Sequence record: MN850584.1
DNA: 64,000 nt
Reading direction: 5' to 3' (one strand)
Source: Escherichia phage arall
Made by a program: the position numbers and the translations under genes. Every line of letters begins with the position of its first letter. Position 1 is the stretch's first letter. This document shows positions 23,092 to 42,683 of this stretch, in pieces. The notes under the pieces were generated by a model. It was given only the letters and a program-made list of their open reading frames with translations. It ran no database searches and was not told where the DNA came from.

Positions 23092-24039
23092 TTAGAAACA
23101 GTGCAGGAAGTTTCGACCATACTGCAAACCGATAGGAGCAAATGGGATATCATCATCGAAATCTTGAATAACAGGTTCTGGTTCTTTCGGTGCTGGCTCT
23201 TTCTTCTCTACTTTTTTAGTTTCTTTCTTAACTTCTTGTACTGGGGTAGACATTCCACGGATAGCAGCAGCCACTTTATCAGACAAAGCAAGAACTTCAC
23301 GAGCAGCTTCAATAATCTCTTCTGCCGTTACAGTTTTACCTGTATGATCACGACAAGCGTTAAGAATTGCGTGTCCAACTGAAGCACCAAGATCATAGTC
23401 AGTCACATCAACGCCACGATCTTTAGCAATTTCAGCTTTCAGAGTAACAGTTGCAGATTGTACCACACCAGCCAAGTCGAAAGCATCACCTTTCACACCA
23501 GCACGTAGAAGCTCCAGAGCGCCGTTTACAGCGTGTCCTGTTTCGATCCCTACGGTATCACGTTTTTTGTAGTTAGGCTTGCTACCGTCATTATTAGATG
23601 GCTTATTTCCACCTTTTGAAGAGGATTGTGCTTGCTGAACACCTTCTGTTGAAAGAATAGTGATTTTACCTTTAGAGGAGTTGTAGTATGTTTTGCCATT
23701 CCATTCAGAAGGTTTAACATCCATAGTTAGTTCTACACCTTTTTCGATAGTAACCCACTTATCACCATCTTTAACTTGCAGGTTTTCATGTTCTGGGTGC
23801 AGTTTAACTTCACCTAGGCTAACCCAAACACCTTTATCATCAGCACCAGCACCTTTCTCTTTAATAAGCAGAGATGCTTTGTGAGTTGATTCAATTTTCT
23901 TATCTGGCTGACCTGCAACCTTAATATAAGAGACTTTCATTTCATCAAACTTATCTAGTTTGACATATTCAACAATACCTTCAGCCCAGAATGCTTCTTT
24001 TTTAGTACGACGGTCGATTTCAGAATTAATTACTGGCAT
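23092..24039 (-). CDS. ssDNA-binding-like protein carrying an SSB C-terminal-type acidic motif
   Basis: 315 aa; …QDFDDDIPF matches the bacterial SSB tip (DFDDDIPF) but is followed by 15 more residues (APIGLQYGRNFLHCF); OB-fold not verified. Confidence 0.4.
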   Translation of the reverse strand: MPVINSEIDRRTKKEAFWAEGIVEYVKLDKFDEMKVSYIKVAGQPDKKIESTHKASLLIKEKGAGADDKGVWVSLGEVKLHPEHENLQVKDGDKWVTIEKGVELTMDVKPSEWNGKTYYNSSKGKITILSTEGVQQAQSSSKGGNKPSNNDGSKPNYKKRDTVGIETGHAVNGALELLRAGVKGDAFDLAGVVQSATVTLKAEIAKDRGVDVTDYDLGASVGHAILNACRDHTGKTVTAEEIIEAAREVLALSDKVAAAIRGMSTPVQEVKKETKKVEKKEPAPKEPEPVIQDFDDDIPFAPIGLQYGRNFLHCF

Positions 24040-24055
24040 AAATTCTCCTCTATAA

Positions 24056-24454
24056 TTACATTACTTTAACACAAAACTCTCGTAAAAGAGTAGCGTCAGT
24101 TTCTTCCAACAGGTATTTACCAAGACCAATACCAAATCCTATTTCACCACTTTCAAAATGGAGGATTTGTATCTTTTCTCCACCAAGGTTAATTACTTTT
24201 GCTTTTCCAGGATTATCCAAAACATCTCGTATTGTATCCTGTAGTAACATTAGTTCACGTTTTGTGATAGTGGTTTCAGATATCTCTTTGTCTTCTACCC
24301 GCACTGTTAAACGGTTGTATCCACCAAAGAGACATAGTATTTGAATAAAAAAGGTATTATCTTGAGGTTCAACATCTTTTTTAGTTAGTTCAAGACGATT
24401 AGTTTCTCTACTGTAGAACGTCTCGACTAAGATTTTAGAACGATTGTCTGTCAT
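24056..24454 (-). CDS. hypothetical protein
   Basis: 132 aa ORF with GAGGA RBS. Confidence 0.45.
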   Translation of the reverse strand: MTDNRSKILVETFYSRETNRLELTKKDVEPQDNTFFIQILCLFGGYNRLTVRVEDKEISETTITKRELMLLQDTIRDVLDNPGKAKVINLGGEKIQILHFESGEIGFGIGLGKYLLEETDATLLREFCVKVM

Positions 24455-24509
24455 TCAAGTCCTCATAATAACACATAATTGTAAGGTTTGTCAACACTTA
24501 AATCTTAAA

Positions 24510-25112
24510 TTATTCGTTGTTAAATGAATCCAGTGTACGTACTTCTGGTTCTTTGGGAATGAAAACGTCTTTTACAAAGCGGAACATAGGGAAACGTTCT
24601 GCCATTTTACGGACGTGTGCTTCTTTACCTGTGTATCGGTGATTAATAGTGCAAATATTAGTTTTCAATGCAAATTCAAAATCTGGATGATATACATAAT
24701 TTTGACCATCCCAGTAACACAGGCAAATAGCTACGTCAAAGTTCCATACGATTTCACTGCGTACACCCTCTTCCATGATCATAAAGTTAAACTTAAGATC
24801 TTTATAGTATGCTTCAAATACCCATTTCAAATGTGGTAGTTCGGCATAAGTGTGTTCTGTTTGCTTAGTGAGTTGTTTAACATTACGTGCACCAACACCC
24901 AACATCAAAAACTTCTCTACTAGCACGAGTGTATTATGGTTAGGCATACGCAAGTAAATGTCAATGTCTTGTGCAGGTTTCTCTAATCGCCAATCACGTA
25001 CAGCGCCGCCAGCTACAATTGCAAACGGATCTACCAGTTGGCACATACGTAATACTTCTAAAGCGCGTACTTTTTGATCTTCAATATTCATATTTTCTCC
25101 TATCGTGTCCAC
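24510..25112 (-). CDS. pol-beta superfamily nucleotidyltransferase, CCA-adding/poly(A) polymerase head-domain-like
   Basis: 200 aa; IVAGGAVRDWRLEKPAQDIDIY matches the GGxVRD…DxD motif of the CCA/PAP head domain. Confidence 0.5.
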   Translation of the reverse strand: MDTIGENMNIEDQKVRALEVLRMCQLVDPFAIVAGGAVRDWRLEKPAQDIDIYLRMPNHNTLVLVEKFLMLGVGARNVKQLTKQTEHTYAELPHLKWVFEAYYKDLKFNFMIMEEGVRSEIVWNFDVAICLCYWDGQNYVYHPDFEFALKTNICTINHRYTGKEAHVRKMAERFPMFRFVKDVFIPKEPEVRTLDSFNNE

Positions 25113-25696
25113 TCTTTATGTTGTTCTACATGCTCAAGCATTTCATTATACAGTGCTTTAAGATGTGGAACAACTCTTTCATCTTCAGTTTCAAAGAATT
25201 TTGTAAGCTGCTCTGCCTTAGCTTTCAACCAGCAAAGATGCGCTTCAATTTCAGTATTAAAACGTCCCAGCGTTTTCATGCGATCATCTACTTTTATATT
25301 GGCTTTGTATTTATTACGATCTTTTTCGTAACTACAGCCTACCATAGTTCCATGAGATCTTTTACTTACTCTATAAGCTAAGAACTTATTAAGATCTCCT
25401 GTTACTAAAAGACAGGTATCGGGAGAGTAAACCCTCCCTCCTATAATATCTTTATCAAGTTCTAAGTTTTCCCAGTTTTCCCAAGTTTGCAACCAGGAGT
25501 AGAAATTTGAGAACAGTTTCCATTCTTCACAAACCGTCACCCCCTTATAACAAGGATCACGTTCTTGTTGGCAAGGGGAGTAACACCTCCCCAGCATAGC
25601 CATCCATTTCATATAATGCGGCGTTAGTTTCTTACTACCAGGTAGCGTACTCTCGCCTTGCAAATCATTAATACCTTCACCATATACGGTAAGCAT
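25100..25696 (-). CDS. free-standing homing endonuclease-like protein (AP2 DNA-binding domain type)
   Basis: 198 aa; N-terminal MKWMAMLGRCYSP…YKGVTVCEEWKLFSNFYSW and C-terminal GCSYEKDRNKYKANIKVDDRMKTLGRFNTEIEA (AP2-like) typical of phage HNH/AP2 endonucleases; abuts polymerase gene. Confidence 0.5.
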   Translation of the reverse strand: MLTVYGEGINDLQGESTLPGSKKLTPHYMKWMAMLGRCYSPCQQERDPCYKGVTVCEEWKLFSNFYSWLQTWENWENLELDKDIIGGRVYSPDTCLLVTGDLNKFLAYRVSKRSHGTMVGCSYEKDRNKYKANIKVDDRMKTLGRFNTEIEAHLCWLKAKAEQLTKFFETEDERVVPHLKALYNEMLEHVEQHKEWTR

Positions 25697-25723
25697 AAAA
25701 ACTCCTTTAAAATCAAAGAGATG

Positions 25724-28303
25724 TCAGTGACAACTGGCCCATGAGTTACCAACATCGTAACCAGCAGTGAGAGGTACATTAAGATTGTAATACTCACCAG
25801 CTTTATTAACAGCGATAGATGCTAATTCTCCAGCACGACTGTAGGCTGTAAACCAACCACCTTTCGGAGATTCATGTACGTTAGCCCAAATCTTGCCAGT
25901 ACGTTTCTCTTCCTCTTCTTTCCAGGCATTAACTTTATCCAAACATTCTTTATCAATTTTCTTTTGTTCTTCTGGATCATCAACTTGAGTCCAACCTAAA
26001 GATTCTTTAGAGAACCATTTAAAATGCACCAGATCACGAGTTACTTCAAGCTGTGCTTCATCGTGATATGCAATCATTTGTTGAACGAATGACTTATTTT
26101 TCCAGTCATCAACAAAAAAGTCAACAGCTAATCCTTCTTCTTCGATAAGATCGTCGTAGATAACCATTGCTCTTTTTGCACAAATAACACCACCACTCTG
26201 GAACAGAGAGTTAAGTATTGCGTGTGCAGATCGTGTAGGTACTTTCCTACCATCAATACCCAGAATGTATTTCTTACCTGTTTTAACCCAGAAATCATGC
26301 AGACGTTCTTTAAGAAGTGCAAGAGGTTTTGCAGCTTCCCAGAAAGCATCGTATACAAGCTGTCCTGTATACATATCACTACCAATAGTTTTTGCTACTT
26401 TTGCAGCTTGAGCACCATAAGTAATGCCATACTTAACAGATTTAGCAGGGCTTCGTTCAAACTTGCGACCAATAGTGTCAGAAATACGTCGAGCCATCAT
26501 TGTATGAACATCATTAGGTTTTTCCAACAATAGAGCATTACAATATTCGTGTGGTTCCTGCTCGTACCGCCAACAGTAGTGTGATTCTATTTTTGCCTCA
26601 AGAGAATCAAAGTCATAACCAATTTGGAAGTATTTTGGAACTTCTACACCAAATAAGTTACGCATTTCATATCCGTACAGAGATGTTACACGTGGGATAT
26701 TTGCTACTAACCTATGTTTCATACGAGACGTAGCTGCATCACACGTTGCAGCAGGAGTTGGTATACGACCATCAGCCCTTACTGCCGCCAGATAACCTTT
26801 ATCGTAATCCTCTTCATCTTCTTCCCAATCAGCACCACCACCTAGAATAGAGTTTCTACGATGTTTATACGTAAGATACTGCACAATCTGCGTAGCATAA
26901 GGAAACTTTTCACCCAGTGCTTCCAGGTTAGGACAAATATCTTTCTCTTGCCCTTTTGTAAAGGAAGGGTTAGTAAGCACTTTAACACCACGACCTTTAG
27001 CTTTAGCAATACGATCTCTTAGTTTCCATTCCAAAGTTTCTGGTGTGCACTCCAGATGATCACATCTATCCTGGCAGAAGTTAGATGCTAATGTTTGATC
27101 AACATAGTCACGAATAGCTTTCTCCATTTGTGCTTCATCTTTCTTAATCTTAGTGCCAGATTTAAGAGTGATATCTTTATCTTTATATTCAGATGGACTC
27201 CAACCTAAACCAACTAACCAATTTTTAATATGTGTAGTGTCGTCTAAAGTAGCAGGTACTGTAGGATCACAAATAGGTTCTTCTGCTGGAATAGGGAGTT
27301 TAAACTCTTTACCTAATGCAAATAACCACCAACCATCTTCTTTTTGTACAAGTTCACCAGAATGTTTCTCTGCAAACTTTATCATGTTACTTGAAGGTTC
27401 ACCATTCTTTTTAAACTGTAGTTTAGGTGGAATGAATGATTTCAAATAACCTTTAGTAGCAGGTTTAGGAGGTAGCACAGGTTCTGCCTCTAAACGACAT
27501 GCTTCCATTCGAGCATCCAGATCACGAATATTATCTTCTGCTTGTTTCATATTGAAAGCAAAGCCACGGTGTTCTTGACGTGTAATAATATCAGCTACAC
27601 GTTGTTCTAAGTTAAATGGTTCAGACCACTTATTATAATCACCCCACTCTTCCATCAAATAACGGAACACTGCGGTGTTAGCTTTGTTATCGTAAATACA
27701 GTAATACAGCATATCTGCTGCAAATGTTCTAAATCTTTCAGCTTCAGGAATGTTTTTTCTAAAATCAATTTTAACATCCCCTCCAGCTTTCTTAGATAAC
27801 TCTGCCAGACTATGACCACCGAAGCGATCAGGGTTTAGTGTCTTACTTAAGATCATAGTATCACAAATTTCAATGTTACTATTACCCCAAGTATTGTACT
27901 TGATACTGTAGTTGAGTTTAAAAAATAATTTAATTGCCAGTAAGTCGAAGTTAATGATGTTGTGTCCAACTACTTTGGTAATTTTATAGTTTGAATTACC
28001 TTTAAATTTACCTGTTCCATTTACAAAATCAGGAAAATCTTTAAGAGGGAAATGGGTATATTCTAAATGCTCATATTCCTCCAGTCGGTATTCATACTTT
28101 CCGTCAGTCTCAATATACGGACGACCATCGAAAAGATATTTATCACCATCATGGAAAGCAATAATCTCTCCAGTATCATGACTTTCGCACACAATACAGT
28201 GCATTGCAAAACTATCTTTTAAACGATATGGACTTGCCAAGTAATCTACACTTTCGTCATTAAGCAAGTTGTTACTTTCAATGTCGAAAGTAAAAGCTCC
28301 CAT
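25724..28303 (-). CDS. DNA polymerase, family A, with 3'-5' exonuclease domain
   Basis: 859 aa; Exo I FDIESNN near N-terminus; motif B-like RSPAKSVKYGITYGA; motif C YHDEAQLEV. Confidence 0.8.
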   Translation of the reverse strand: MGAFTFDIESNNLLNDESVDYLASPYRLKDSFAMHCIVCESHDTGEIIAFHDGDKYLFDGRPYIETDGKYEYRLEEYEHLEYTHFPLKDFPDFVNGTGKFKGNSNYKITKVVGHNIINFDLLAIKLFFKLNYSIKYNTWGNSNIEICDTMILSKTLNPDRFGGHSLAELSKKAGGDVKIDFRKNIPEAERFRTFAADMLYYCIYDNKANTAVFRYLMEEWGDYNKWSEPFNLEQRVADIITRQEHRGFAFNMKQAEDNIRDLDARMEACRLEAEPVLPPKPATKGYLKSFIPPKLQFKKNGEPSSNMIKFAEKHSGELVQKEDGWWLFALGKEFKLPIPAEEPICDPTVPATLDDTTHIKNWLVGLGWSPSEYKDKDITLKSGTKIKKDEAQMEKAIRDYVDQTLASNFCQDRCDHLECTPETLEWKLRDRIAKAKGRGVKVLTNPSFTKGQEKDICPNLEALGEKFPYATQIVQYLTYKHRRNSILGGGADWEEDEEDYDKGYLAAVRADGRIPTPAATCDAATSRMKHRLVANIPRVTSLYGYEMRNLFGVEVPKYFQIGYDFDSLEAKIESHYCWRYEQEPHEYCNALLLEKPNDVHTMMARRISDTIGRKFERSPAKSVKYGITYGAQAAKVAKTIGSDMYTGQLVYDAFWEAAKPLALLKERLHDFWVKTGKKYILGIDGRKVPTRSAHAILNSLFQSGGVICAKRAMVIYDDLIEEEGLAVDFFVDDWKNKSFVQQMIAYHDEAQLEVTRDLVHFKWFSKESLGWTQVDDPEEQKKIDKECLDKVNAWKEEEEKRTGKIWANVHESPKGGWFTAYSRAGELASIAVNKAGEYYNLNVPLTAGYDVGNSWASCH

Positions 28304-28799: not shown

Positions 28800-30572
28800 T
28801 TAATAAGAACCATCAGGAATATTCTCTGGGTTACTTGTGTATTGATCGTAATCGTGAAGTGTCGCTGTTTTAATCTCATAGAAGAAACTACCTGCTGCAC
28901 CAGTCTCTGAGAACTCACGGTTCTTTAGAATGTAGCAATATGTGCGGTTACGTTCCATAGGATCTTCAGCTTGTTTATCACGCTCCAGCGCAATTGTGAT
29001 ACCAGCACCTTTAGCAAGGAAGCTACTACCCATTGCATCATCTTCTACAATATGTTCATTACTATTGTTAGAAGACTTTTTAACGTGTGAAATTACAACA
29101 ATGGTAATTGCATACTCTTTCATAATGCGTTTCAGCCACGTCGCAAGTTCCTCTTGTTGTGACACGTCCATACCAGAAAGCAAATCAGAATAAGGGTCGA
29201 TAACAAGAATGGTTACTCCGAAATAAATAATCATTTCCAGAACCTTCTCTTTAATCACATCTACGTTAGCTCCACGATCATCACAAACATAGAAACGTGG
29301 TGTTCCATCTTCTCGTTCGTAAAAATCACGAATCTTTTCTTCATTATCTTTTAAAATCTTTTCCTTCTCTTCTTTTGTTTTACGGTGAAGAGGGATGTGC
29401 AAGAATGAAGACAGTAAGTTACGAGAATACTTCTTATACGTTGCCTCCAAAGATAAAATACCAAGAGTATGTTCTGGGTGTGCAAGAATAATGTGCTTCG
29501 TAATCTCGTTAACCAACAGTGTCTTACCAATACTTGTTTTTGCAAGTATAACAGTAATTTCTTCTTCTACCAAGCCTCCACCTAACATATTAGAAGCAAC
29601 ACGCATGAATGGAGGAAGGGTGATCATTTTAGCTTCCAGGCATTCCAAGGCTGCTTCATACAGTACGTTAGAAGCATAAACACCAGCAGGTGTGTACAGT
29701 TTAGCTTTGAAAAAGCGATCAAGAAAGTGATCAATTTTTCCTTCTACTAATGCCTGGTTAGGATCTTTAACATCAGTTAGTTCCATCACGTAAACTTTAT
29801 TACGTGGTAAGATTTTAACACATTTCTCAACTGCTGCACGTCCAGCTTCATCATTATCCATACATAGAACAATCTTTTTAAATTGATCTAAGAATTTATA
29901 ACGATGTTGAAGCTGCTTATGCAGAGATGTTTCGCCACAAGTACCAGATACTACAGCAGGAACAGGATATTTACCACCCTTGTTATAATCTTTTAGCATC
30001 TGTGTTGCAGCCAGCATATCGTGTTCACCACCAACGATTAGAATAGTACCGCTGTGGTTACGATATTTAAACTCCCCAAAAAGATCACAATCCTTTCCTG
30101 TTTCACCGATAGGATGTGAGAAATCTTTTGGATCGATACGTTGTTTATACCCAGCAATATTGTAATCTTTAGTTGTAGGGTATAGTGTTGAAATTACTTC
30201 GCCAGTAGCTTCATCGTACATATAACGTACACCGAAAGGCTTAGAGATATCTTCACGAATACCGCGATAACCTTTTGGATTAGTTCCAGTGCTGGCTTTT
30301 AGTTTATCATGTACTTCAGGATTAAACTCACTACCCAAGATATCCTCCTCTTCAATTTCTTCGCCGTGTGCATTTAACCATTTTTGATCAGGGATAGTAA
30401 AGCCACAAGAAAAACAATGTGCTCCTCGATGGTCTTCATCGGCATCTAAGCCATATACCATCAAATTGTTTTGTGATCGATCACGCCCTCCTTTCATACA
30501 ACGAGGACACCCAGTATGTCCTTCTTGACTTAGATCAATGTTATACCCATATTTATTTACAACATAAGACAC
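28800..30572 (-). CDS. bifunctional DNA primase-helicase (T7 gp4-like)
   Basis: 590 aa; Zn ribbon CPRC…CFSC; TOPRIM acidic motifs (GGEHD, MDNDEAG); DnaB-type Walker A AKTSIGKT and Walker B VLVIDPYSD. Confidence 0.8.
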   Translation of the reverse strand: MSYVVNKYGYNIDLSQEGHTGCPRCMKGGRDRSQNNLMVYGLDADEDHRGAHCFSCGFTIPDQKWLNAHGEEIEEEDILGSEFNPEVHDKLKASTGTNPKGYRGIREDISKPFGVRYMYDEATGEVISTLYPTTKDYNIAGYKQRIDPKDFSHPIGETGKDCDLFGEFKYRNHSGTILIVGGEHDMLAATQMLKDYNKGGKYPVPAVVSGTCGETSLHKQLQHRYKFLDQFKKIVLCMDNDEAGRAAVEKCVKILPRNKVYVMELTDVKDPNQALVEGKIDHFLDRFFKAKLYTPAGVYASNVLYEAALECLEAKMITLPPFMRVASNMLGGGLVEEEITVILAKTSIGKTLLVNEITKHIILAHPEHTLGILSLEATYKKYSRNLLSSFLHIPLHRKTKEEKEKILKDNEEKIRDFYEREDGTPRFYVCDDRGANVDVIKEKVLEMIIYFGVTILVIDPYSDLLSGMDVSQQEELATWLKRIMKEYAITIVVISHVKKSSNNSNEHIVEDDAMGSSFLAKGAGITIALERDKQAEDPMERNRTYCYILKNREFSETGAAGSFFYEIKTATLHDYDQYTSNPENIPDGSY

Positions 30573-30584
30573 ATGATTCTCCTA

Positions 30585-30854
30585 CTAAAATGATTCGTTT
30601 GTCTCCATAATATATTGCATTTCCAAATCTTCCATATGTTTCTTAAATTGGTAAACAATTTCCGATGGGGAAATATCTATATCAAAAAGTTCTTTTGTAC
30701 CAGAATAAAATCTAATACCATCAACAATAAGACCACCATAATAATCCCAATCACTTTCTCGTGAGAAAGGGTTAGGTTCTTCATAATAGTAATCTACTTC
30801 AACAATAATAGGTTCTTTATTATCTTGTTTATACTCAAAATCAAAAGTGTTCAT
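30585..30854 (-). CDS. hypothetical protein
   Basis: 89 aa acidic ORF; ATGA overlap with downstream gene. Confidence 0.4.
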   Translation of the reverse strand: MNTFDFEYKQDNKEPIIVEVDYYYEEPNPFSRESDWDYYGGLIVDGIRFYSGTKELFDIDISPSEIVYQFKKHMEDLEMQYIMETNESF

Positions 30855-31798
30855 TATAAATCCTCGATAAGCAGTTTGCGGGTTTCATTTAAATCATCAA
30901 TATTGTAGTTATCTCTTACATACTTAGCAAGAGCTAATCCTTTCTCAATACAAACATCAGGAGATTCGATTAAGTATTCTACAATATCTTTCCACTCTTT
31001 AACTGAATCAGCAAAGAAGATTAGATCTTTAAATTCTTCAGTATAGTAGTTCTCTCGTGGCGAACAAACGAGTGGCAAACCTTTAGCACCAGCTTCAAGA
31101 ATTTTTAAATTACTTTTGGCATTATTAAAATGATTATTTACTAATGGAGCTATGGAGATTTGATGACCATCGTATGCTTCCATATAACACTCATAAGGAC
31201 GAATACCTTCATAAACACAATCTGGTTGAATATCTTCTTTAATTTGCAACCATTGAGCACTACTTAACTCTTCGTGATCTCTACGAAATCCACATAAAGT
31301 TAAATCTTTACCAAAATCAGGAAGAATTGCTAAATCATGTTTATGGGTTTCACTTCCCGCCCAAACCAGTGGACTTTTAGAATAACGATCTTTAGTAAGA
31401 ACAAACTGTCCTTCATCAAAAGGTAGTCCGTTAGGCACAATATGTACATTATCATTGTATTGGCTTAATTCAACCTTTAACGCCGGAGTTGTTGTAGTTA
31501 CAAGATCGCTTCTTTCAAGGAACCATTTTAGATCATCTCGGATTTGATTTTCAAATAATCCTTCAAGCATATGCCCTTCAGGAATAATTAAAGAATCATC
31601 CAGATCCATTACCAATTTAAACCCAAGTTGTTTAAGAGCCAGGAAACCTGGCTTTCCACGTGTTGGTACTCCATTGAACACAAAAATATTATGCTTAGGA
31701 TTAATGGTCAGTTTGCGTTTATATGGCAAAATGATTCTATGAAAATCACATACACTATACTTTTCATTTCCGCGTGTGTCAAGAATAATATTAGGCAT
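30854..31798 (-). CDS. glycosyltransferase-like protein (GT-B-like), paralog A
   Basis: 314 aa; C-terminal ISIAPLVNNHFNNAKSNLKILEAGAKGLPLVCSP; paralogous to 31810-32784. Confidence 0.4.
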   Translation of the reverse strand: MPNIILDTRGNEKYSVCDFHRIILPYKRKLTINPKHNIFVFNGVPTRGKPGFLALKQLGFKLVMDLDDSLIIPEGHMLEGLFENQIRDDLKWFLERSDLVTTTTPALKVELSQYNDNVHIVPNGLPFDEGQFVLTKDRYSKSPLVWAGSETHKHDLAILPDFGKDLTLCGFRRDHEELSSAQWLQIKEDIQPDCVYEGIRPYECYMEAYDGHQISIAPLVNNHFNNAKSNLKILEAGAKGLPLVCSPRENYYTEEFKDLIFFADSVKEWKDIVEYLIESPDVCIEKGLALAKYVRDNYNIDDLNETRKLLIEDL

Positions 31799-31809
31799 AT
31801 ATCTCCTTG

Positions 31810-32784
31810 TTAAAGACTTTCAATAACTTGACGACGCAGTTCATTGGCATCTGCAAGATTATAATTAAGACGAACGTGTTCTGCAAGCATCATACCACGA
31901 TCTTCTGTGTATCTAGGGTTCCTCATTAGCTTGACAACTTCATAATGCCAAGATGCTTTAGAGTCTGCATAGATAACAACCTTTGCATCTACCGGATTGA
32001 AGTACGGCAGCACAGGAGAACAGATAATAGGAAGACCCTTTGCACCTGCTTCCAAAATCTTCAAATTGCTTTTACAGTTGTTGAAGTCATTATCTACTAG
32101 GGGAGCAATTGCAATACTGTGACCGTCATACACAGACATATACTCACCTAAATTTTTAATAGCTGGTTTATACTGTGCATTTGGAATTTTACGTTTTATT
32201 TTAACCCACTCCGCAGTAGTTAGATACTGACTATTATTTCCAACAGGTGCAGAAGGATACACTTCATACCCTGCAATTGTCAATAGTGTATCATCAAATG
32301 TATTAGCTACAAGAGATAAATCAGGCTCATGGCTTGCTCCTCCAGCCCAGATAATAGGTGTGTCAGAACTACGGTCTTTTGTCAAAGTAAATTGACCTTC
32401 GTCGTAAGGTAGTGCGTTTCTAATAACGACAACATTACGATTTAAATGACGAATTTTGTAAGCTAGGTATTCTGTTGTTACAGTAACCACATCTGCTAAC
32501 TTAATCATCTCTACAATAGTCTTTGAGTGATTAGTAAATACGCCAGCCATATAATGTTCAGGATTAAGCGAATAAAAATCATCTAAATCAACAATAATCT
32601 TAACACCTTGTGCCTTCAGGCGTTTAACTTCGTCTGATCCACGAGAATACACTCTATTAAAAACTAAAACGTCTTTCTTAGGTTTAAACGTATTTCCAGC
32701 AAATGGCATTACAATACGATGGTAATCACAACCACTGCCTAACTTATTATCACACTTAAGTACAGGAGTATTAGGATTTACCAT
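31810..32784 (-). CDS. glycosyltransferase-like protein (GT-B-like), paralog B
   Basis: 324 aa from internal ATG (MVNPNTPVLK) with GAGGAGG RBS; IAIAPLVDNDFNNCKSNLKILEAGAKGLPIICSP aligns with paralog A. Confidence 0.4.
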   Translation of the reverse strand: MVNPNTPVLKCDNKLGSGCDYHRIVMPFAGNTFKPKKDVLVFNRVYSRGSDEVKRLKAQGVKIIVDLDDFYSLNPEHYMAGVFTNHSKTIVEMIKLADVVTVTTEYLAYKIRHLNRNVVVIRNALPYDEGQFTLTKDRSSDTPIIWAGGASHEPDLSLVANTFDDTLLTIAGYEVYPSAPVGNNSQYLTTAEWVKIKRKIPNAQYKPAIKNLGEYMSVYDGHSIAIAPLVDNDFNNCKSNLKILEAGAKGLPIICSPVLPYFNPVDAKVVIYADSKASWHYEVVKLMRNPRYTEDRGMMLAEHVRLNYNLADANELRRQVIESL

Positions 32785-33457
32785 ATTTTTGAGCCTCCTC
32801 ATAAGAGATAAAAGTTTTACCATTGCGAAGATCCTCCAGTGATTGTTTATATTGTTCCCAGTTTACACCAATCCCCTGTTCTTTCTCTTCTTTTGACAGA
32901 TTCGCAAAAGGTAAAGGATTATCTCCAAACACATCGTCAGGATGGATAAACGCCATAATTCGAATAGGACATGGTACACCGAGAATGCCTCGGTTCAAAC
33001 CTGCCAGTGGAACGCGCTGAATCCACTCTGCATCTTCATATCCATAACCGTGGGTGTATGAGCGGAAATAGCCAGCTTTCTCAATAACTGCACGGGAATA
33101 CATACCAAACTGGCACATACCTAGTTCCCAAATAACCACCTCCCCTTCAATACCTTTTACTTTATCTTTAAAGTATTCAGGCATACCAAAGAAATCCCAA
33201 CCATTTTCCTTTGCCTGTTTTACAAAATATGTTTCCCACCCTGGAACAACAGGATAGCAATCATCATCAAAAATAAACCAGTAGTCATACCCTTCATCAT
33301 AAAACTTTTTCATCAGTTCATTACGGGCATATGCAACACCTTTTCGTTCACGATCATACTGTACAACAAAAGTAGCATTAGGATCAGTCACAAGATAATC
33401 TTTAAGAGGACGCTTACCTACAGTAATAACACCAACACCAATTTTTGTATTTTCCAA
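32771..33457 (-). CDS. glycosyltransferase, GT-A fold (DxD type)
   Basis: 228 aa; WFIFDDDCYP (DxD) and YGYEDAEW acidic motif. Confidence 0.45.
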   Translation of the reverse strand: MENTKIGVGVITVGKRPLKDYLVTDPNATFVVQYDRERKGVAYARNELMKKFYDEGYDYWFIFDDDCYPVVPGWETYFVKQAKENGWDFFGMPEYFKDKVKGIEGEVVIWELGMCQFGMYSRAVIEKAGYFRSYTHGYGYEDAEWIQRVPLAGLNRGILGVPCPIRIMAFIHPDDVFGDNPLPFANLSKEEKEQGIGVNWEQYKQSLEDLRNGKTFISYEEAQKYGKS

Positions 33458-33466
33458 AATAACTCC

Positions 33467-34030
33467 TTAAATAATTTTATTCATGTCTTGACAATGTAAA
33501 AGGTGTGAAACAGCTTTTCTAGGATCATCATTACCTAAACGGTAGGTGTGAAATAAATATAACCCACGTAATAAACCTAGCCTTTTGTTGTTAGCATGTA
33601 ATGCTTTAGAGAAAATTATATCAAACTGTATTGATCTTTCCTCAAAAGGAATTTCATTCCACAGACTCTTACGAAAGAGAAGAAAGAATCCTGCTAAGAT
33701 AGCATCTGTAGGTACTTCCTCTATTGAGTTTCCCCATTCTAGATGTGCTCTTTTTGCAATCTCAATGTGGTGTAATATATTCGGATCTTCACTTCTTTCA
33801 TTATTAAATAATTGATATGTTGATCCCAATCTGTTACAAGATGCACCAAGAACATCAAAATCAGGATTTGAACGGACAATTGATTCCAGCCAAGCAGGTT
33901 GTTCTGGAAGAAGAAACATTGTATCAATGTCTCTTAGGCAAATCCAACTATCTTCTGGTAAGACACTTATTGTGTCATTGATACCTTTTCCAATATCTCC
34001 AGAAAGATAGGGAGTTATGTGAAATATCAT
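33467..34030 (-). CDS. hypothetical protein, possible nucleotide-sugar transferase-like
   Basis: 187 aa; ICLRDIDTMF acidic motif; GGAGGGAG RBS; adjacent to three glycosyltransferase-like genes. Confidence 0.3.
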   Translation of the reverse strand: MIFHITPYLSGDIGKGINDTISVLPEDSWICLRDIDTMFLLPEQPAWLESIVRSNPDFDVLGASCNRLGSTYQLFNNERSEDPNILHHIEIAKRAHLEWGNSIEEVPTDAILAGFFLLFRKSLWNEIPFEERSIQFDIIFSKALHANNKRLGLLRGLYLFHTYRLGNDDPRKAVSHLLHCQDMNKII

Positions 34031-34087
34031 ACTCCCTCCGTATTATTACTTTAGCATTTTTAGACTAAAAAGTCCAAATGGTTTTAC

Positions 34088-34282
34088 CTATTGATTACGT
34101 TTTGCGAGTTCCATTTGGATAGCTAAACTGTGATCTCGTGCTTCCATATACTCTTTATATGTTTCATTAAGATGATCACGACAAACATCACGCAGTTTAA
34201 TCAGTTTATCTGTAGGGATACCACTAAGATCATCCCAAGATTTTACAACTTCACCAGTATCATTGATCCCAATGGTTTTCAT
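34088..34282 (-). CDS. hypothetical protein
   Basis: 64 aa ORF; overlaps the start region of neighbour. Confidence 0.35.
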   Translation of the reverse strand: MKTIGINDTGEVVKSWDDLSGIPTDKLIKLRDVCRDHLNETYKEYMEARDHSLAIQMELAKRNQ

Positions 34283-34490
34283 CTACAACCTCCTTAATTG
34301 CTACAGCACAGTTTTTGCAGATACACTGCCCTTTACCTTTAGAAATCTGGATGTAAGGTTCATTTTCATTTTCGCCCTTACGTGAGTCATATATTACAGT
34401 ATTGAAGCACACAACGCAAATATTTTTTAAGATTGTATACTTATCAACTTTCTTTTTTGTTTTAAAGTTAACTTCAATAACATCAGCCAT
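34260..34490 (-). CDS. small Cys-rich protein (possible zinc ribbon)
   Basis: 76 aa from ATG at 34490 (TGATG overlap with upstream stop); CVVC…CICKNC. Confidence 0.4.
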   Translation of the reverse strand: MADVIEVNFKTKKKVDKYTILKNICVVCFNTVIYDSRKGENENEPYIQISKGKGQCICKNCAVAIKEVVDENHWDQ

Positions 34491-34778: not shown

Positions 34779-35288
34779 TTAGCGATAGAATTGATGTTCT
34801 TTGTAGCGGTACACTAGAACCATATCTTTTTCCCAGTGTGCTCTTATTGTAGATTTTTTAAAGTATAATGCTCCTTTTGTAATATCTAATGCAATTCGTA
34901 ATTCTGGAAAATGGTTATCGAGATAAAGTAGACGTTCTGCTATAGCTTTAGCGTCTTTCCACTTATCGTGTTCCATAACGTTGAATGTCTTTGTGTAAGA
35001 GAATTGTCCTTTCTGAAACAAAACTTCTTTTATAGTATCAGGGAAATATGAATCTTTAGCCCTATTCAATACTACATTACCAACAGCAGACATACCGCGC
35101 TTTCCTTGATTACGACTTTCTGCATAGATTGCACAAGCTAATAGATTTTCTTTACTATCACGCTTTGTACACTTGTGAACTACTTTAGCAGTTTTTACGT
35201 TTGCAGCTTCGGCTTGCGCCACAACAGGTGTAAATGTAAAAGCAGTTAAGGATAGTAACGCAATTGCGACAAAGGTTTTTATTGACAA
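34779..35288 (-). CDS. secreted cell-wall hydrolase, SleB/Hydrolase_2-like (endolysin candidate)
   Basis: 169 aa; N-terminal Sec signal peptide (MSIKTFVAIALLSLTAFTFTPVVAQA/EA); CAIYAESRNQGKRGMSAVGNVVLNRAKD matches the SleB-type catalytic region; AGGAGG RBS. Confidence 0.55.
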   Translation of the reverse strand: MSIKTFVAIALLSLTAFTFTPVVAQAEAANVKTAKVVHKCTKRDSKENLLACAIYAESRNQGKRGMSAVGNVVLNRAKDSYFPDTIKEVLFQKGQFSYTKTFNVMEHDKWKDAKAIAERLLYLDNHFPELRIALDITKGALYFKKSTIRAHWEKDMVLVYRYKEHQFYR

Positions 35289-35983: not shown

Positions 35984-36035
35984 TGTTTTCTCCTCTTCTA
36001 TTTAAAATATGCGCCCCGAAGGGCACTATGATTTA

Positions 36036-36632
36036 TTACTCGAACCAATCGTCGCCAGCGCCAAACGCTTTAACTACATCATAAATGTCAAGTCCAGCTT
36101 TACCTACACCATATGCTTTCAGTTTCCATTCACTATCTTCCCGCACCAGGGAGGCAACGTGGCAAATGGTATTACCTGCAAGTTCTGGAGCCAAGAAGTC
36201 AAAATCCAGCAGTTCAACGTTACGTTCATCATCGAAGATTTTAAGGAAACCTTCGGTAGCGTGACCAAGGCGTTTCTTACCCGTTTCGTCATCAATAGTA
36301 ATTACGAATGCAATTTCCTGTGCTTCAGCAGAGATATTATCCAGTGTAACATCAATCTGCTCCATTTGTCCTACACCGTCACGAACATCTTCACCTGCAA
36401 AAGTAGAACGTTCAGGGTCAAATTTCTGTGCGTAGCATACCAGGTGGCGAGGAGACAACAGTTCCGGCAGACCAGATGCATTGTGTCGGCAAATCAGAGC
36501 ACTAACATCCAGATCCAGTTTTTCGTTAGATTTCCAAGAGAATTCCAGACGAATGCGTTTCAGTGCTGGTGCAATCTTTTTCAGAGAAACTTTTTCGCTA
36601 GAACCTTTTTTCAGGGAAATTTTCTGAGTCAT
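36036..36632 (-). CDS. terD: TerD-family stress protein
   Basis: 198 aa; ISLKKGSSEKVSLKK, LDLDVSALIC, AGEDVRDGVGQMEQIDVTL, IAFVITIDDE, SEWKLKAYGVG align block by block with YceD/TerD proteins as I recall them. Confidence 0.65.
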   Translation of the reverse strand: MTQKISLKKGSSEKVSLKKIAPALKRIRLEFSWKSNEKLDLDVSALICRHNASGLPELLSPRHLVCYAQKFDPERSTFAGEDVRDGVGQMEQIDVTLDNISAEAQEIAFVITIDDETGKKRLGHATEGFLKIFDDERNVELLDFDFLAPELAGNTICHVASLVREDSEWKLKAYGVGKAGLDIYDVVKAFGAGDDWFE

Positions 36633-36704
36633 AATTTATTATCTCCTTTGTTGTTAATTTACGTTATCTATTTTACTAATCTTTTCTACAAAGTCAAGCG
36701 TTTT

Positions 36705-37499
36705 TTACGCTTTTGCTCCGAATTTTTTAACCCACTCGCCAAACTCTTCGGATAGCAGTTTATCGTAAAGTTCTTCGTCAGACAAGGACAAATCTGCAAT
36801 ACCGATAAAGTCAACGTTATCGTATTCTTTTGCCAAGTCTTTCAGGAATTTAAAGTTTGCATTACCTACACCAACCATAAACCAGTAAACAGGAGTGTTG
36901 CGGTGTTTGTTCAGCAAACTACGTACTGCTGAAGTATCCATGTTCTCCCCGTCAGTTTGGAAGAAAATCATTGCAGGAGTACGATCAACTTGTGCATCAG
37001 TATCTACAACCTGTTCTACAACAGTACGTGTAACTTCTACAAGTTCTTTTTTACCAGTTAGTTTAGCAAGGAAACCCTTAGCCGGAACTTCTTCATACTC
37101 AACGACTTCGCGTGTAATATTTTTCATAGGTACACTACCGAAGTATGTATCATAGATCTCTTGCATTACTGGAGCATAAGCTGTACCACCATTGATGCAA
37201 ACGTTAGACATACAAGAGCCGACATAATCATCATATACATCAGCCGTAGCAGGAGGCAGTTCAAAAGAAGAACTATTGAAAGCCCACATGTCAATCTGTG
37301 CATTATCATCAAACTTCATACCAAACGGCAGCAGCTTACCTACAAAATCACTAACAGTGCCATCACGATACAGCTCACACATACTACCCGAAATATCTAA
37401 GGCGCTACCGACACGAAGAACAACATCGTTAATCTTTTTCTTACGCAGAGATACGGTAAGAGTTTCTTGACGTTTTTTAAGACTGATTTTATTGGACAT
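36705..37499 (-). CDS. vWA-domain protein, TerF/TerY-like
   Basis: 264 aa; TerD-like N-terminal stretch (ISLKKRQETLTVSL) then vWA MIDAS motif DISGSM. Confidence 0.5.
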   Translation of the reverse strand: MSNKISLKKRQETLTVSLRKKKINDVVLRVGSALDISGSMCELYRDGTVSDFVGKLLPFGMKFDDNAQIDMWAFNSSSFELPPATADVYDDYVGSCMSNVCINGGTAYAPVMQEIYDTYFGSVPMKNITREVVEYEEVPAKGFLAKLTGKKELVEVTRTVVEQVVDTDAQVDRTPAMIFFQTDGENMDTSAVRSLLNKHRNTPVYWFMVGVGNANFKFLKDLAKEYDNVDFIGIADLSLSDEELYDKLLSEEFGEWVKKFGAKA

Positions 37500-37500
37500 A

Positions 37501-37770
37501 TTATTTCTCCTTTCTGAGTGTAATGTTAGTAACTTCTAAATCCACTTCTACCATTTCTGTATCATACGAAATACAGCTAAGTTGACCTCTTTGCGAACCG
37601 TTCAGACACATTGCTTGGTTTGTATTAACTTTAATAAACACTAAGTTTCTGAATGTATCTAAACCAGAATCTTGATAGGCAACATAATATACAAATGTAT
37701 CACCTGCGTCAAGTTCTCCAAAACATTTAGGTTCATCTGATTTGTCGTCTTTGATATTAAATTTAAGCAC
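37501..37770 (-). CDS. hypothetical protein
   Basis: 89 aa ORF; stop abuts the vWA gene start. Confidence 0.4.
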   Translation of the reverse strand: MLKFNIKDDKSDEPKCFGELDAGDTFVYYVAYQDSGLDTFRNLVFIKVNTNQAMCLNGSQRGQLSCISYDTEMVEVDLEVTNITLRKEK

Positions 37771-38326
37771 TGTCTTCTCCTTTACCTGCTCTCAAGCCTA
37801 AATAGAAAGCCTCTCTGGTGATCTTTTGCAACTCGTTTAAAGAGATAGTTACAACTAAATCATCTTCAATTTCTAGCTTTGAGTCTTCTTCTGTCTCAAT
37901 GCAAGTATTATGCACTTTGTGGTAAGGATTGTCAACACGTTTAAATTTATTATTTTCAGTGCTGAAGAAGCAATCTGGATCTTCTTCCCCATCACCCCAA
38001 CCCTGGTTAGGATCTTCTTCAGATCTTTCTGTTGGGATCTCGCCTGTAAAGTGCTCTTCTAATACCAGAGCAATCCCATCTCCAAGATCGGAAGAGAACA
38101 TCAAATTACAAACTTCTTCCCAAGGCATAGACCACTTAAATCTTTTACGATTGCCATGTTTATCTTCTTCGTTAGAGAAAACACTACCATAACTATCATA
38201 ATTCCCATACATCTCTTCGACAACCTTACCACCTTTCAAAAGAAATAGGTAGCAAGGAGAGCCATCGAAAGAGGTAGAAAGAGCAGCATTACCAGACTCT
38301 TTGCACAAGAAACTAAAACACCCCAT
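37763..38326 (-). CDS. hypothetical protein
   Basis: 187 aa; acidic C-terminal half; overlaps neighbour by 8 nt. Confidence 0.4.
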   Translation of the reverse strand: MGCFSFLCKESGNAALSTSFDGSPCYLFLLKGGKVVEEMYGNYDSYGSVFSNEEDKHGNRKRFKWSMPWEEVCNLMFSSDLGDGIALVLEEHFTGEIPTERSEEDPNQGWGDGEEDPDCFFSTENNKFKRVDNPYHKVHNTCIETEEDSKLEIEDDLVVTISLNELQKITREAFYLGLRAGKGEDSA

Positions 38327-38526
38327 TATACACCAGCCTTAAGATCAATTAAAGCCAAAGTTGTTTCAGAGTGTGTTTGCTCGTCTACAGGTGCAGTCAT
38401 ATGATAATACAAAAAATCTTCGGCATCATACCAATCTGATTCTTGACCTTGTTTCCAACCATCAATGAAAGCATCTTCCATAATGGTTTGCAATTCTTCA
38501 CGAGTTAAGTGAATATCTTTACTCAT
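38326..38526 (-). CDS. hypothetical protein
   Basis: 66 aa acidic ORF; ATGA overlap. Confidence 0.35.
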   Translation of the reverse strand: MSKDIHLTREELQTIMEDAFIDGWKQGQESDWYDAEDFLYYHMTAPVDEQTHSETTLALIDLKAGV

Positions 38527-38759
38527 TACACATTCTCCTCTTTTACCAATTCCATCGTTGAATTGTCAAAACCATCTTTAGAAGAATAGGTATAGACAGA
38601 ACGTAGTTCTCGCAGGACAGTGAATACATTAGGATCATCTAACCAAGCATCCTGGAGGAGAACATAACGATCTTCATTGTCATACTGAACAGCAATCATA
38701 GAACCAGACAGTTTGTAAATTTTAATATTCATAATATATTTCTCCTTAAAGTAGACCAC
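38526..38759 (-). CDS. hypothetical protein
   Basis: 77 aa ORF; true start may be the internal MNIKIYKL. Confidence 0.35.
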   Translation of the reverse strand: MVYFKEKYIMNIKIYKLSGSMIAVQYDNEDRYVLLQDAWLDDPNVFTVLRELRSVYTYSSKDGFDNSTMELVKEENV

Positions 38760-39849
38760 GTTTAACAGTTTGAATCATACCATCTTCAAGAGATTGCACT
38801 TCTTGAATGTAATCAATACGAGCAGCACGGGCTTCAGTGTTGATTCGGTTAGTTTCTTCCAACATTTTAACTAAGTTTTCTTGATCACGACGCAATGTTT
38901 CAATATCCAATACTTGACGATTAGCAAGTTGTGTAGCTTCAATCTGGTTTTGTGCAGCCAGATCACTACCCATTGCAATAGCAGCATTAAATTCATTCAG
39001 TACGTTGTTCTGTGTATCGGCTGCTTTCTTCTGGCGTAGACTTTCAATATACATAGAAAAGTTTGCAGAGTAAGCAGGAATAACATTATTCACAATATTA
39101 CGGGCTGATCGCATCAAACTTGCAGATACTTTCTGCATACTTTGTACACGTGGCCCCATCTGAACACATAGTAAGCGTAGGGCTTTCAGGTCTGCAATAC
39201 GAATTTCAAGCAGATCCATAGTATCACGAGTACGTTGACGCTCTTCTACCTCATTTTCAGGTAGTGTATTAAGGCGAATTTCTTCTTTTTCATAAGTAGC
39301 TGTTAGAAGCTCTATATCCCTGTTTAAGCTAAGGGCATATTTTGCAATAGCCTCTTCTAAACGTTGCAGATATCGTAAAGAATCTTCTTCTTTTTTCAAG
39401 TCTGTTTGGAGTGTCTTTACCAAACCTTCAATACGGTTATTGATGGTGTCAAATTCTCCAAACAAATCTTCTTTCATACCTAAAACTTTCTTAACTAGTT
39501 TACCTAAACCTTTAGATTGTTTAATAGAGTTAGGATCAAGTTGCTTTGCTTGCTTAATAAGTGCAGTTAAACGTTCACTCATTTCATCTCCCTGAGATGA
39601 ACGCTGGTGTTTAAGCACTTCAGCATTAAGGTTACGAAGAGTAAGTCCTGCATCAGCACCAACCTGTTCAATCTCTTCACGAGACATTGGAGGCAGCATT
39701 TGTACAGGGCGTGCAACAGCAGGGGCATATACAGGGCTTGCATCCATAGCACTTGGAGCAAACAAAGACTTACTTTTTTCTGTTGTTGCCGTGAATACAC
39801 TCATTTCAGACGGTTTGCTTTTTACGGCACTGATAAAAGGACTGGACAT
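38746..39849 (-). CDS. helical protein, TelA-like (toxic anion resistance family) candidate
   Basis: 367 aa; GGAGGA RBS; predicted all-helical with coiled-coil heptads; size and position between TerD and TerC as in yce-type operons; no motif confirmed. Confidence 0.35.
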   Translation of the reverse strand: MSSPFISAVKSKPSEMSVFTATTEKSKSLFAPSAMDASPVYAPAVARPVQMLPPMSREEIEQVGADAGLTLRNLNAEVLKHQRSSQGDEMSERLTALIKQAKQLDPNSIKQSKGLGKLVKKVLGMKEDLFGEFDTINNRIEGLVKTLQTDLKKEEDSLRYLQRLEEAIAKYALSLNRDIELLTATYEKEEIRLNTLPENEVEERQRTRDTMDLLEIRIADLKALRLLCVQMGPRVQSMQKVSASLMRSARNIVNNVIPAYSANFSMYIESLRQKKAADTQNNVLNEFNAAIAMGSDLAAQNQIEATQLANRQVLDIETLRRDQENLVKMLEETNRINTEARAARIDYIQEVQSLEDGMIQTVKRGLL

Positions 39850-39917
39850 TCAATTTCCTCCATATTCTTTAGTAGATGGTGATACCTCTGTACCACCATC
39901 ATAACACAAATTAAGTA

Positions 39918-40769
39918 TTAAACAAACATATCTAAATAATTTGTAGTAATAAATGCTCCATCTGCTTCCAGATTAACATAACCCGTGGTATTAGCAGTTA
40001 AGAAATCCAGATCGAAGGACTCTTTAACACCCCGTACCTCAACACGAGAGATATCGAATACAGGTAGTGTAACAGCCTCTTCGTGCAATACCGTACCTTT
40101 GTAGGTTGCCTTAATGATAAACTTGATATTACCTGTTCCAGCATCATATAAAACACTTTCAAACCCTTTGAGAGTATATTTATCACCAGAAGTGAAGTGC
40201 AAAGTTGCTTTGTTTACAGTACGTTTCTTACGAGGAGTTCCTTTCACACATTTATGATCACTACGTTTTTTGTATTTAGGAATGAATACAAACGATACAC
40301 TCTCAAGAAAGGTATCAACATCAAGGATTTTAATATCCTCTGTTGCAGCAAATTTTGAAGTCGTTGCATCAAAATGCTTTTCCCTGCGATCATACATAAA
40401 GATATCAAACCGATCTTCTAAATCAAACAAATTATGTATTTTAATTTCAGAATGCTTGCGCATTGCAGCAACCTTGAACTCTTCAAAACGTGGGTGTTCT
40501 ACAAGTTCTTCAAGTTTTACACCAAAGATAGTATATTGCTTCGAAGTCTTTTCTGGTGTTGGCATTACAGAAGCATAGTCCCCGATTGCGCTCTTAAAGC
40601 AAAATTGTTCTTGACCTGTATTTTTACCAACGAATTTACAGTATTCGTCATCGTGCATACTTTCCTTGGTAGTACCAACAAACTCAAAACCATCTTTATT
40701 CTTCTCAAGGATTTCTTGATTAAAGATCCAACCTTCCAGGCGATATACTTTACCAACTTCTAGTTTCAT
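39918..40769 (-). CDS. hypothetical protein
   Basis: 283 aa; GGAGAAACAG upstream. Confidence 0.45.
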   Translation of the reverse strand: MKLEVGKVYRLEGWIFNQEILEKNKDGFEFVGTTKESMHDDEYCKFVGKNTGQEQFCFKSAIGDYASVMPTPEKTSKQYTIFGVKLEELVEHPRFEEFKVAAMRKHSEIKIHNLFDLEDRFDIFMYDRREKHFDATTSKFAATEDIKILDVDTFLESVSFVFIPKYKKRSDHKCVKGTPRKKRTVNKATLHFTSGDKYTLKGFESVLYDAGTGNIKFIIKATYKGTVLHEEAVTLPVFDISRVEVRGVKESFDLDFLTANTTGYVNLEADGAFITTNYLDMFV

Positions 40770-40804
40770 CTGTTTCTCCTTCTTATTTAATCTGTATTAA
40801 ATTA

Positions 40805-41588: not shown

Positions 41589-41599
41589 CAGATCACCTC

Positions 41600-41623
41600 A
41601 ACAAAGCCCCCCGAAGGGGCTTA
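41600..41623 (-). terminator. terminator-like hairpin after terC
   Basis: AAGCCCC-TTCGG-GGGGCTT on - strand; weak T-tract. Confidence 0.4.
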
Positions 41624-41628
41624 ATGAA

Positions 41629-42606: not shown

Positions 42607-42683
42607 TCTTTTCTCCTCTTTAATGCGGAGGACAATCCTCCGCTCTATGTCTTATACTATAAACTGTTTTTAAAGAAAGTCAA

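Follow-up and report, generated by a model that had tools for sequence, protein, structure and literature searches.

The Corndog locus and the genome-end genes gp108-110 of Che8 reportedly glycosylate capsid and tail proteins of these mycobacteriophages, a result attributed to Freeman et al. in 2023. In the bacterial pairs Aah/AIDA-I, TibC/TibA and HMW1C/HMW1, a cytoplasmic protein glycosyltransferase (GT) is encoded beside the surface protein that it modifies. TarP, GtrABC and RmlT are temperate-phage or host enzymes that modify lipid-linked or wall polymers with the help of membrane partners. Other phage GTs modify DNA, such as the alpha/beta-GT and beta-glucosyl-HMC alpha-GT of T-even phages or the arabinosyltransferases of RB69 and DLP3 (PMC13326640). 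Known phage DNA glycosylation requires a hydroxylated base, for which two routes are described: a ThyA-family enzyme makes it ahead of replication, or a TET/JBP oxygenase makes it once the DNA has been methylated. Here we analyzed a cassette of four GT genes located at positions 30854-34030, on the minus strand, of a 64,000-nucleotide stretch of Escherichia phage arall (MN850584.1), the whole of which is called the window below. Our analysis indicates that this cassette most likely builds a short glycan whose acceptor is a protein or a component of the cell envelope and not phage DNA. We tentatively favor a glycan assembled in the cytoplasm on phage virion proteins, probably using the dTDP-rhamnose pathway of the phage itself.

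Like the Che8 and Corndog cassettes, which sometimes include sugar methyltransferases, the arall cassette combines several soluble GT-A and GT-B enzymes without a base-hydroxylating enzyme. Unlike them, it is located in a replication block, belongs to a large virulent myovirus of a Gram-negative host and is known from its genes alone. It resembles the DNA-glycosylating systems of T-even phages, RB69/DLP3 (PMC13326640) and the MT/TET-associated and TAGT/JGT types by its multi-GT composition near the replication genes of a virulent phage, by the nucleotide-sugar supply encoded in the same genome and by the R..DDD..ED motifs of its GT-A enzyme. It departs from these systems in that no hydroxymethylase, TET/JBP or dCTPase-kinase is detected, the TAGT match is sub-threshold and the phage DNA is restriction-sensitive. 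RmlT, a wall-teichoic-acid rhamnosyltransferase, is included here as a structural neighbor. In contrast to TarP and GtrABC, the cassette has no membrane components, its phage is virulent and its families are found across unrelated envelopes.

The evidence that points to a protein acceptor comes from the genomic company of homologs. In one locus (L011), a GT-A and a GT-B gene lie directly upstream of the small terminase gene, on the late-gene strand and opposite to the replication genes. In L025, the GT-B gene is found between TerL and the portal/protease genes. In L028, it precedes TerL, portal, protease and capsid genes, and in L013 it is located upstream of terS with a hexapeptide acetyltransferase and a GT2 gene. 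Streptomyces phage KimJongPhill carries a UDP-glucose dehydrogenase, a methyltransferase and a GT-B just before terS. The family of the smallest cassette enzyme (187 amino acids) is fused to a TOD1/MUCI70 glycosyltransferase-like domain in Cellulophaga phage phi18:2, where it lies beside a Methyltransf_24 gene, between portal/MuF and prohead protease/capsid genes. In L021, the same family is found between terminase and portal/capsid genes, with a GT2, a polysaccharide deacetylase and two Methyltransf_24 genes. These positions, the portal-protease interval or just upstream of terminase, are shared by the homologs, and not by the window cassette, with Corndog, whose gp35-38 layout (Cresawn et al. 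2015, PMC4351075) matches the placement of the GTs in the homolog loci.

Relatives of the GT-B proteins were found in at least 547 stretches of IMG/VR, and we examined the best 80 loci (L030-L109), which fall into 18 clusters at 60% identity. We detected TerL in 42 of these 80 loci, representing 8 clusters; among the 46 loci whose sequence extended 4 kb or more downstream, it was detected in 33. All 42 TerL genes shared the strand of the GT and 39 followed it downstream, the median distance being 2.9 kb. The usual position of the GT-B gene in uncultured viruses is 1-7 kb upstream of TerL on the same strand. The commonest Pfam neighbors in the IMG/VR loci were GT2, hexapeptide acetyltransferases, ParB, portal and terminase.

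The genes beside bacterial relatives agree with this. A GT-B homolog of Burkholderia dolosa (L006:3025-8440) adjoins an intimin/invasin gene, and another one from a JGI metagenome (L027:100-5501) adjoins a pertactin-type autotransporter gene, so that both of the bacterial homologs examined are beside autotransporter-type adhesin genes. This recalls Aah, TibC and HMW1C in gene context alone, since the GT families are different, and it suggests that the bacterial homologs are an uncharacterized family of adhesin-modifying glycosyltransferases. The closest out-group phage relatives of the GT-A enzyme, found in 341 Mycobacterium phage records, are glycosyltransferases encoded at the right genome end. 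Among the matches listed, they are of cluster-F type (for example Boomer gp102, pairwise E 1e-13), meaning that distant GT-A relatives occupy the right-end glycosyltransferase locus of these mycobacteriophages. Overall, the same families span phages of Streptomyces, Cellulophaga, enterobacteria and unknown hosts. Because homologs are located with packaging and head genes and beside autotransporter adhesin genes, we consider that this context favors a protein acceptor, probably a virion protein, which was not among the options of a preliminary description made from the letters of the window.

According to this virion-protein model, in which the acceptor, the order of steps and the sugars are our deductions, the four soluble Leloir enzymes would make an oligosaccharide on a non-DNA acceptor, namely capsid, tail or fiber proteins, before or during assembly. 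One GT-A would place the first sugar on a protein side chain, and the other GT-A and both GT-B paralogs would contribute one further sugar or linkage each, the tandem GT-B duplication adding an extra step. Donors would be host UDP-sugars and dTDP-L-rhamnose, the latter boosted by the RmlABCD operon of the phage, and the particle would end up coated with a surface glycan. With more reserve, we propose as a possibility that Justusliebigvirus and Phapecoctavirus particles, from two groups of cultured phages that carry the cassette, bear a phage-made, rhamnose-containing glycan on capsid, sheath or fiber proteins, made by enzyme families unrelated in sequence to those of mycobacteriophages.

Several observations weigh against this model. 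No report of a glycosylated Justusliebigvirus or Phapecoctavirus virion protein was found in the literature. BLASTP and profile searches of the three families against Che8 gp108-110 and Corndog gp36-38 detected no homology (E 0.2 or worse), so that the parallel to virion glycosylation is one of context and analogy. The cassette itself is in a replication block and not with late genes. Some DNA-modification genes also adjoin terminase (Burke et al., bioRxiv 10.1101/2023.12.21.572611), and the fold matches of the cassette enzymes are too generic to tell one type of acceptor from another. As for the IMG/VR loci, TerL was detected with an ad-hoc profile and ThyA with an improvised seed, and 50 of the 80 loci come from one 60%-identity cluster. 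Finally, a candidate glycosylation site did not track with the cassette. The sheath protein (L010:10170-11576, just outside the window) of Escherichia phage PaulScherrer (Bas60), a close relative of arall, has a Ser/Asn-rich C-terminal tail, NRTANSQNSNSSTVSS. Such a tail is absent from phAPEC8, where the cassette is present, and from Vequintavirus MaxTheCat; the sheath of Klebsiella phage 05F01 has a similar Thr/Ser-rich tail.

Judging from their motifs, all four cassette proteins are glycosyltransferases with intact catalytic residues, predicted to be soluble, cytoplasmic and of Leloir type, two with a GT-A and two with a GT-B fold. The coordinates given in the preliminary description were exact, and its reading of all four genes as transferases proved correct. 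GTB1 and GTB2 are true paralogs, with 131 identical residues out of 324 (40%) over their full length (E 9e-82), and both contain the block IAPLVxNxFNNxKSNLKILEAGAKGLPxxCSP that had been noticed earlier. They match phrog_7162 (GTB2, 6.2e-149; GTB1, 9.7e-145). GTB1 is above the cutoff of Pfam Glyco_trans_1_2 (PF13524; 26.8 bits for a cutoff of 25), whereas GTB2 is sub-threshold despite its 40% identity to GTB1. In 32 members of the GT-B family, PF13692 (Glyco_trans_1_4) was found in 24 and PF13524 in 21. The top PDB profile match of the family is the GT4 enzyme MshA (3c4q, E 0.002). In the E-x7-E motif, the second Glu (E235, in LEAGAKGLP) is invariant and the residue eight positions upstream is Ala or Cys; an invariant K228-S229 adjoins this replaced position. 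Since the first Glu is replaced and the second is kept, motif comparison identifies the pair as a divergent GT4-like subfamily. Its N-domain, on the acceptor side, retains several invariant residues.

The Rossmann-like GT-A fold of the two GT-A-type enzymes was confirmed by fold comparison. In the 228-residue GT-A, the DDD and ED motifs singled out in the preliminary description correspond to D64-D65-D66 and E141-D142, which are invariant across 14 homologs. The fourth gene, formerly a putative transferase, encodes the 187-residue enzyme, whose D34-x-D36 is invariant across 25 sequences. We treat these two enzymes as separate families because their profile-profile comparison was not significant (probability 1%). 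PHROGs families exist for all three cassette enzyme types, and no NCBIfam family was found for any of the four GTs. A PDB sequence search with single proteins and profiles was uninformative for the two GT-A enzymes and yielded only a weak MshA/TreT match for the GT-B family, and the BFVD fold search gave generic viral GT-A matches only.

Table 1. Genes of the glycosyltransferase cassette of phage arall, in order of transcription (positions in the window)
Gene	Position	Strand	Description
187-aa GT (gene label GT4)	33467..34030	-	Compact GT-A fold, invariant DxD; transcribed first in the cassette
GT-A	32771..33457	-	228 aa, TTG start; GT-A fold, invariant R16...D64-D65-D66...E141-D142
GTB2	31810..32784	-	324 aa, GT-B-fold, GT4-like; the open reading frame extends to 32823 (337 aa)
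GTB1	30854..31798	-	314 aa, GT-B-fold, GT4-like; more diverged tandem paralog

In the direction of transcription, the 187-residue GT is followed by GT-A, GTB2 and GTB1, separated by a 9-nt gap, a 14-nt overlap and an 11-nt gap, respectively (Table 1). GTB1 overlaps by 1 nt with an 89-residue gene (30585-30854), which is followed by the primase-helicase gene (28800-30572). No terminator-like site was found within the four-gene array, and the cassette is apparently co-transcribed with the primase-helicase. A promoter-like scan gave no signal above shuffled expectation, and no promoter was assigned. A Shine-Dalgarno sequence precedes each of the four genes individually. For GTB2, the start codon is probably the ATG at 32784, giving 324 residues, because a GAGGAGG ribosome-binding site is located 9 nt before it and the phAPEC8 ortholog has 316 residues. 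Compared to phAPEC8 (66-76% amino acid identity), the four genes have a non-synonymous divergence (pN) of 0.16-0.24 and a synonymous divergence (pS) of 0.68-0.81. These values match those of the primase-helicase (pN 0.20, pS 0.72), with synonymous sites being saturated in this comparison. The four GT genes are real, are under strong purifying selection and are not a chance pattern.

The open reading frame map placed the module inside the replication gene block, as first described. Its location between the primase-helicase and a "lysin" was also right, but this lysin is a SleB/CwlJ hydrolase and three small open reading frames intervene. The hydrolase gene (34779-35288, minus strand; Pfam Hydrolase_2, 8.6e-20) encodes an N-terminal signal-peptide-like segment and also accompanies the cassette in an IMG/VR locus (L030). 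Because the PaulScherrer endolysin is annotated elsewhere (bas60_0207, outside the window), the hydrolase would be a second, secreted muralytic enzyme. On the other side of the cassette, the 89-residue gene was rejected as a part of it and goes with the primase-helicase, since it has homologs in PVP-SE1-type phages, which are not among the GT matches listed. Its product is very acidic (pI 4.1; phrog_4240), is kept directly upstream of the primase-helicase, and is found in Stephanstirmvirinae, PVP-SE1 and several Cronobacter phages, the latter not being among the GT matches listed either. It may be a replisome accessory protein.

The window phage is a phi92-like myovirus of the genus Justusliebigvirus (Stephanstirmvirinae) infecting E. 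coli; it is a virulent phage of 146-150 kb with a Gram-negative host. On the PaulScherrer genome, the window covers about 12.75-80.4 kb. Over region 30500-34400, the identity to PaulScherrer is 99.1%, and more than 50 further isolates, phi92 included, reach 98-99%. The cassette has already been annotated: RefSeq labels the four genes as glycosyltransferases, and the BASEL record as two "putative disaccharide synthases" and two "putative glycosyltransferases". The puzzle that it poses has also been flagged in the literature. According to Olsen et al. (2020), phi92-like phages and Phapecoctavirus carry a complete dTDP-rhamnose pathway, and DNA glycosylation was proposed. Maffei et al. (2021) reported Bas60-62 to be "exceptionally susceptible" to restriction systems of types I, II and III, "despite a putative dTDP glycosylation machinery". 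Our literature search found no experimental work on the four GT genes. The RmlABCD genes are absent from the window and are located at about 119.2-122.5 kb of PaulScherrer, among nucleotide-metabolism genes.

Among cultured phages, the cassette is found in Justusliebigvirus (98-100% identity), in Phapecoctavirus and close relatives (66-78%) and in a few Klebsiella and Citrobacter relatives. No Vequintavirus phage was among the matches listed for the three GT searches; the Vequintavirus sheath protein is 28-29% identical to that of this phage. A metagenomic relative (L007/L008) carries a 187-residue type GT, a GT-A type, an epimerase and a single GT-B adjoining a primase-helicase. GTB2 is closer than GTB1 both to the single GT-B of L007 (52% and 39% identity, respectively) and to the Burkholderia homolog (44% and 35%). 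The tandem duplication is specific to the Justusliebigvirus/Phapecoctavirus lineage, and the identities to the L007 protein mark GTB1 as its diverged product.

The main rival to virion glycosylation is remodeling of the host envelope, which we regard as unlikely. In this case, the GTs would modify undecaprenyl-linked or core intermediates of the lipopolysaccharide (LPS) core, O-antigen, enterobacterial common antigen (ECA), NGR glycan or capsule, or a new glycan would be made during infection. The resulting receptor change would lead to superinfection exclusion or keep progeny off debris. The preliminary description had named host surface polymers such as teichoic acid or capsule; LPS, ECA and capsule are possible targets, while teichoic acid is not a candidate because the host is E. 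coli. The phage does carry the pathway for dTDP-L-rhamnose, a classical O-antigen and LPS donor, and phi92-like phages bind surface glycans via many tailspikes. Early or middle expression together with replication genes would fit, and the sugar acetyltransferases, GT2, epimerases and aminotransferases found beside homologs are typical of polysaccharide loci. However, a membrane anchor, flippase, polymerase and priming phosphotransferase are all lacking from the cassette, and no hydrophobic segment was found in the four GTs (maximum Kyte-Doolittle 19-residue mean of 1.23). None of the Gtr-type partners (GtrA flippase, GtrB bactoprenol GT, GT-C GtrC) was found in the cassette or among its neighbors. 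Moreover, the families span hosts that share no envelope glycan, and yet the GT-B N-domain keeps its invariant residues. Small phages carry the genes within head-morphogenesis operons and not at typical moron sites, and the lytic cycle is short for a turnover of the surface.

An improbable alternative is that the enzymes act on another soluble acceptor, either a non-virion host or phage protein, an RNA or a small molecule, for example an immune signal or a metabolite derived from nucleotides, for host takeover or anti-defense. It draws on the long early/middle block in which the cassette lies, which the PaulScherrer annotation describes as rich in genes of takeover or anti-defense type, with a Ter-like set, a macrodomain, a phosphoribosyltransferase and a HAD gene, and on NAD-salvage genes and a DUF4326 protein elsewhere in the genome. 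It is also consistent with the properties of the GTs, three of which are acidic and all of which are soluble. On the other hand, this linkage is not conserved elsewhere, where the recurrent partners are sugar enzymes and packaging or head genes, and four sequential GTs would be unusual for the modification of a signaling molecule. The isoelectric point was discarded as a proxy for DNA binding, given that T4 alpha-GT (pI 6.1) is acidic as are three of the four GTs.

The Ter-stress-like set comprises TerD (36036-36632) and a vWA-TerF-like gene (36705-37499), both on the minus strand. The minus-strand Ter neighborhood, at about 36000-45400, corresponds to bas60_0057-0072 of PaulScherrer, in which the macrodomain, phosphoribosyltransferase and HAD genes are annotated upstream of the Ter genes. 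TelA, TerC and CapR were also found by a Pfam scan among unannotated PaulScherrer proteins. This set resembles the Ter neighborhoods for which Anantharaman, Iyer and Aravind are said to have predicted a "nucleoside-like metabolite".

Glycosylation of phage DNA, by addition of rhamnose or other sugars to a modified base, was the first suggestion of the preliminary description, and we find it hardly probable. The cassette is close to the primase-helicase and DNA polymerase genes, a linkage kept in L007 and L008, and the location of the rml operon among nucleotide-metabolism genes was the basis of the proposal by Olsen et al. (2020). The R..DDD..ED pattern of the GT-A matches that of phage/JGT DNA GT-A enzymes, and a Dcm-like C5 methyltransferase encoded by the phage could mark sites. 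DNA arabinosyltransferases resemble ordinary bacterial GT-B enzymes (PMC13326640), so that the fold is compatible with a DNA acceptor and fold similarity cannot decide between acceptors. Nevertheless, a search for base-modifying genes, as had been advised, covered the window and the remainder of the PaulScherrer genome and revealed no enzyme able to make an acceptor. In this scope, there is no ThyA-type hydroxymethylase or hydroxylase and no relative of T4 gp42, the sole thymidylate synthase being ThyX (Pfam Thy1). A dCMP/dUMP hydroxymethylase, TET/JBP or dCTPase-kinase module was neither linked nor detectable. A Pfam scan of 60 unannotated PaulScherrer proteins of at least 110 residues listed Ter-type, NADAR-like, MazG-like and other families, and TET/JBP, 2OG-oxygenase and ThyA were not among them. 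In the 80 IMG/VR loci, no ThyA-family gene was found within 10 kb with the T4 gp42 seed; TET/JBP was not searched there. The GTs also show no similarity to T4 alpha- or beta-glucosyltransferase, as tblastn of these enzymes against the window and the rest of PaulScherrer gave nothing below E 0.8 and our profiles A1-A3 matched them at E 3 or worse.

Besides the R..DDD..ED pattern, the one positive lead to DNA was TAGT (PF20691), with weak matches in 13 of 14 GT-A family members. All 14 are sub-threshold, and the best E-value is that of the window protein itself, which scores 23.3 bits for a cutoff of 27.5 and over residues 16-75 only (about 60). The GT-A family has 1495 representatives in a library of 1.8 billion proteins. 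In 100 distant members, Glyco_transf_7C was found in 48, Glycos_transf_2 in 39 and TAGT, weakly, in 7; Boomer gp102 passes the GT2 threshold and the L011 GT-A passes the 7C threshold. The resemblance to TAGT is thus generic and does not hold up as a lead to DNA modification. In a supplementary file of Burke et al. (bioRxiv 10.1101/2023.12.21.572611), their own GT-A scan of NCBI phages lists T-even phages and no phi92-like, Justusliebigvirus or Phapecoctavirus genome. In addition, relatives of this phage are routinely sequenced by Illumina, and a DNA modification is compatible with the susceptibility of Bas60-62 to restriction (Maffei et al., 2021) only if it is of low frequency and sequence-specific. 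Taken together, the undetected acceptor route, the failing TAGT lead and the published restriction sensitivity make bulk DNA hypermodification very unlikely.

The phage encodes two methyltransferases and is yet highly restriction-sensitive according to published data. The Dcm-like C5-cytosine methyltransferase (L002:38016-39005; PaulScherrer bas60_0189) is outside the window, and a Dam-like N6-adenine methyltransferase is located at about 21900-22700 of the window (PaulScherrer bas60_0039).

Comparison of the window with PaulScherrer revealed other differences. The DNA polymerase (25724-28303, minus strand) is an intein-free protein of 859 residues, while its PaulScherrer ortholog has 1104 residues with an intein of 245 residues, which corresponds to a gap in the blastn map. 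About 2.3 kb with one lateral tail-fiber gene (PaulScherrer 23982-26325) is missing at about 11228-11260 of the window. Conversely, about 0.8 kb is extra at 48369-49145, in or next to anaerobic ribonucleotide-reductase genes, and could be a mobile element.

For genome scans, the lesson of this locus is that GTs among replication genes are by themselves no evidence of DNA hypermodification. The analysis also bears on the puzzle raised by Olsen et al. (2020) and Maffei et al. (2021), of restriction-sensitive phages having a dTDP-rhamnose pathway and four GTs. If host surface glycans are remodeled instead of virion proteins, the cassette would be a receptor-editing system of a lytic phage. If virion proteins are the acceptor, it would give phages of Gram-negative bacteria their first system for virion glycosylation, a trait that would then not be confined to actinobacterial phages. 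The GT-B family, with its many IMG/VR relatives typically located upstream of TerL, would then point to a virion-decorating class that is widespread and has been overlooked. Phages of the phi92-like and phAPEC8-like groups are broad-host-range coliphages, recurrent in therapeutic cocktails and in the BASEL collection. A sugar coat on their particles would have consequences for how therapeutic phages are recognized by antibodies, how they are cleared and how stable they are, as has been reported for mycobacteriophages.

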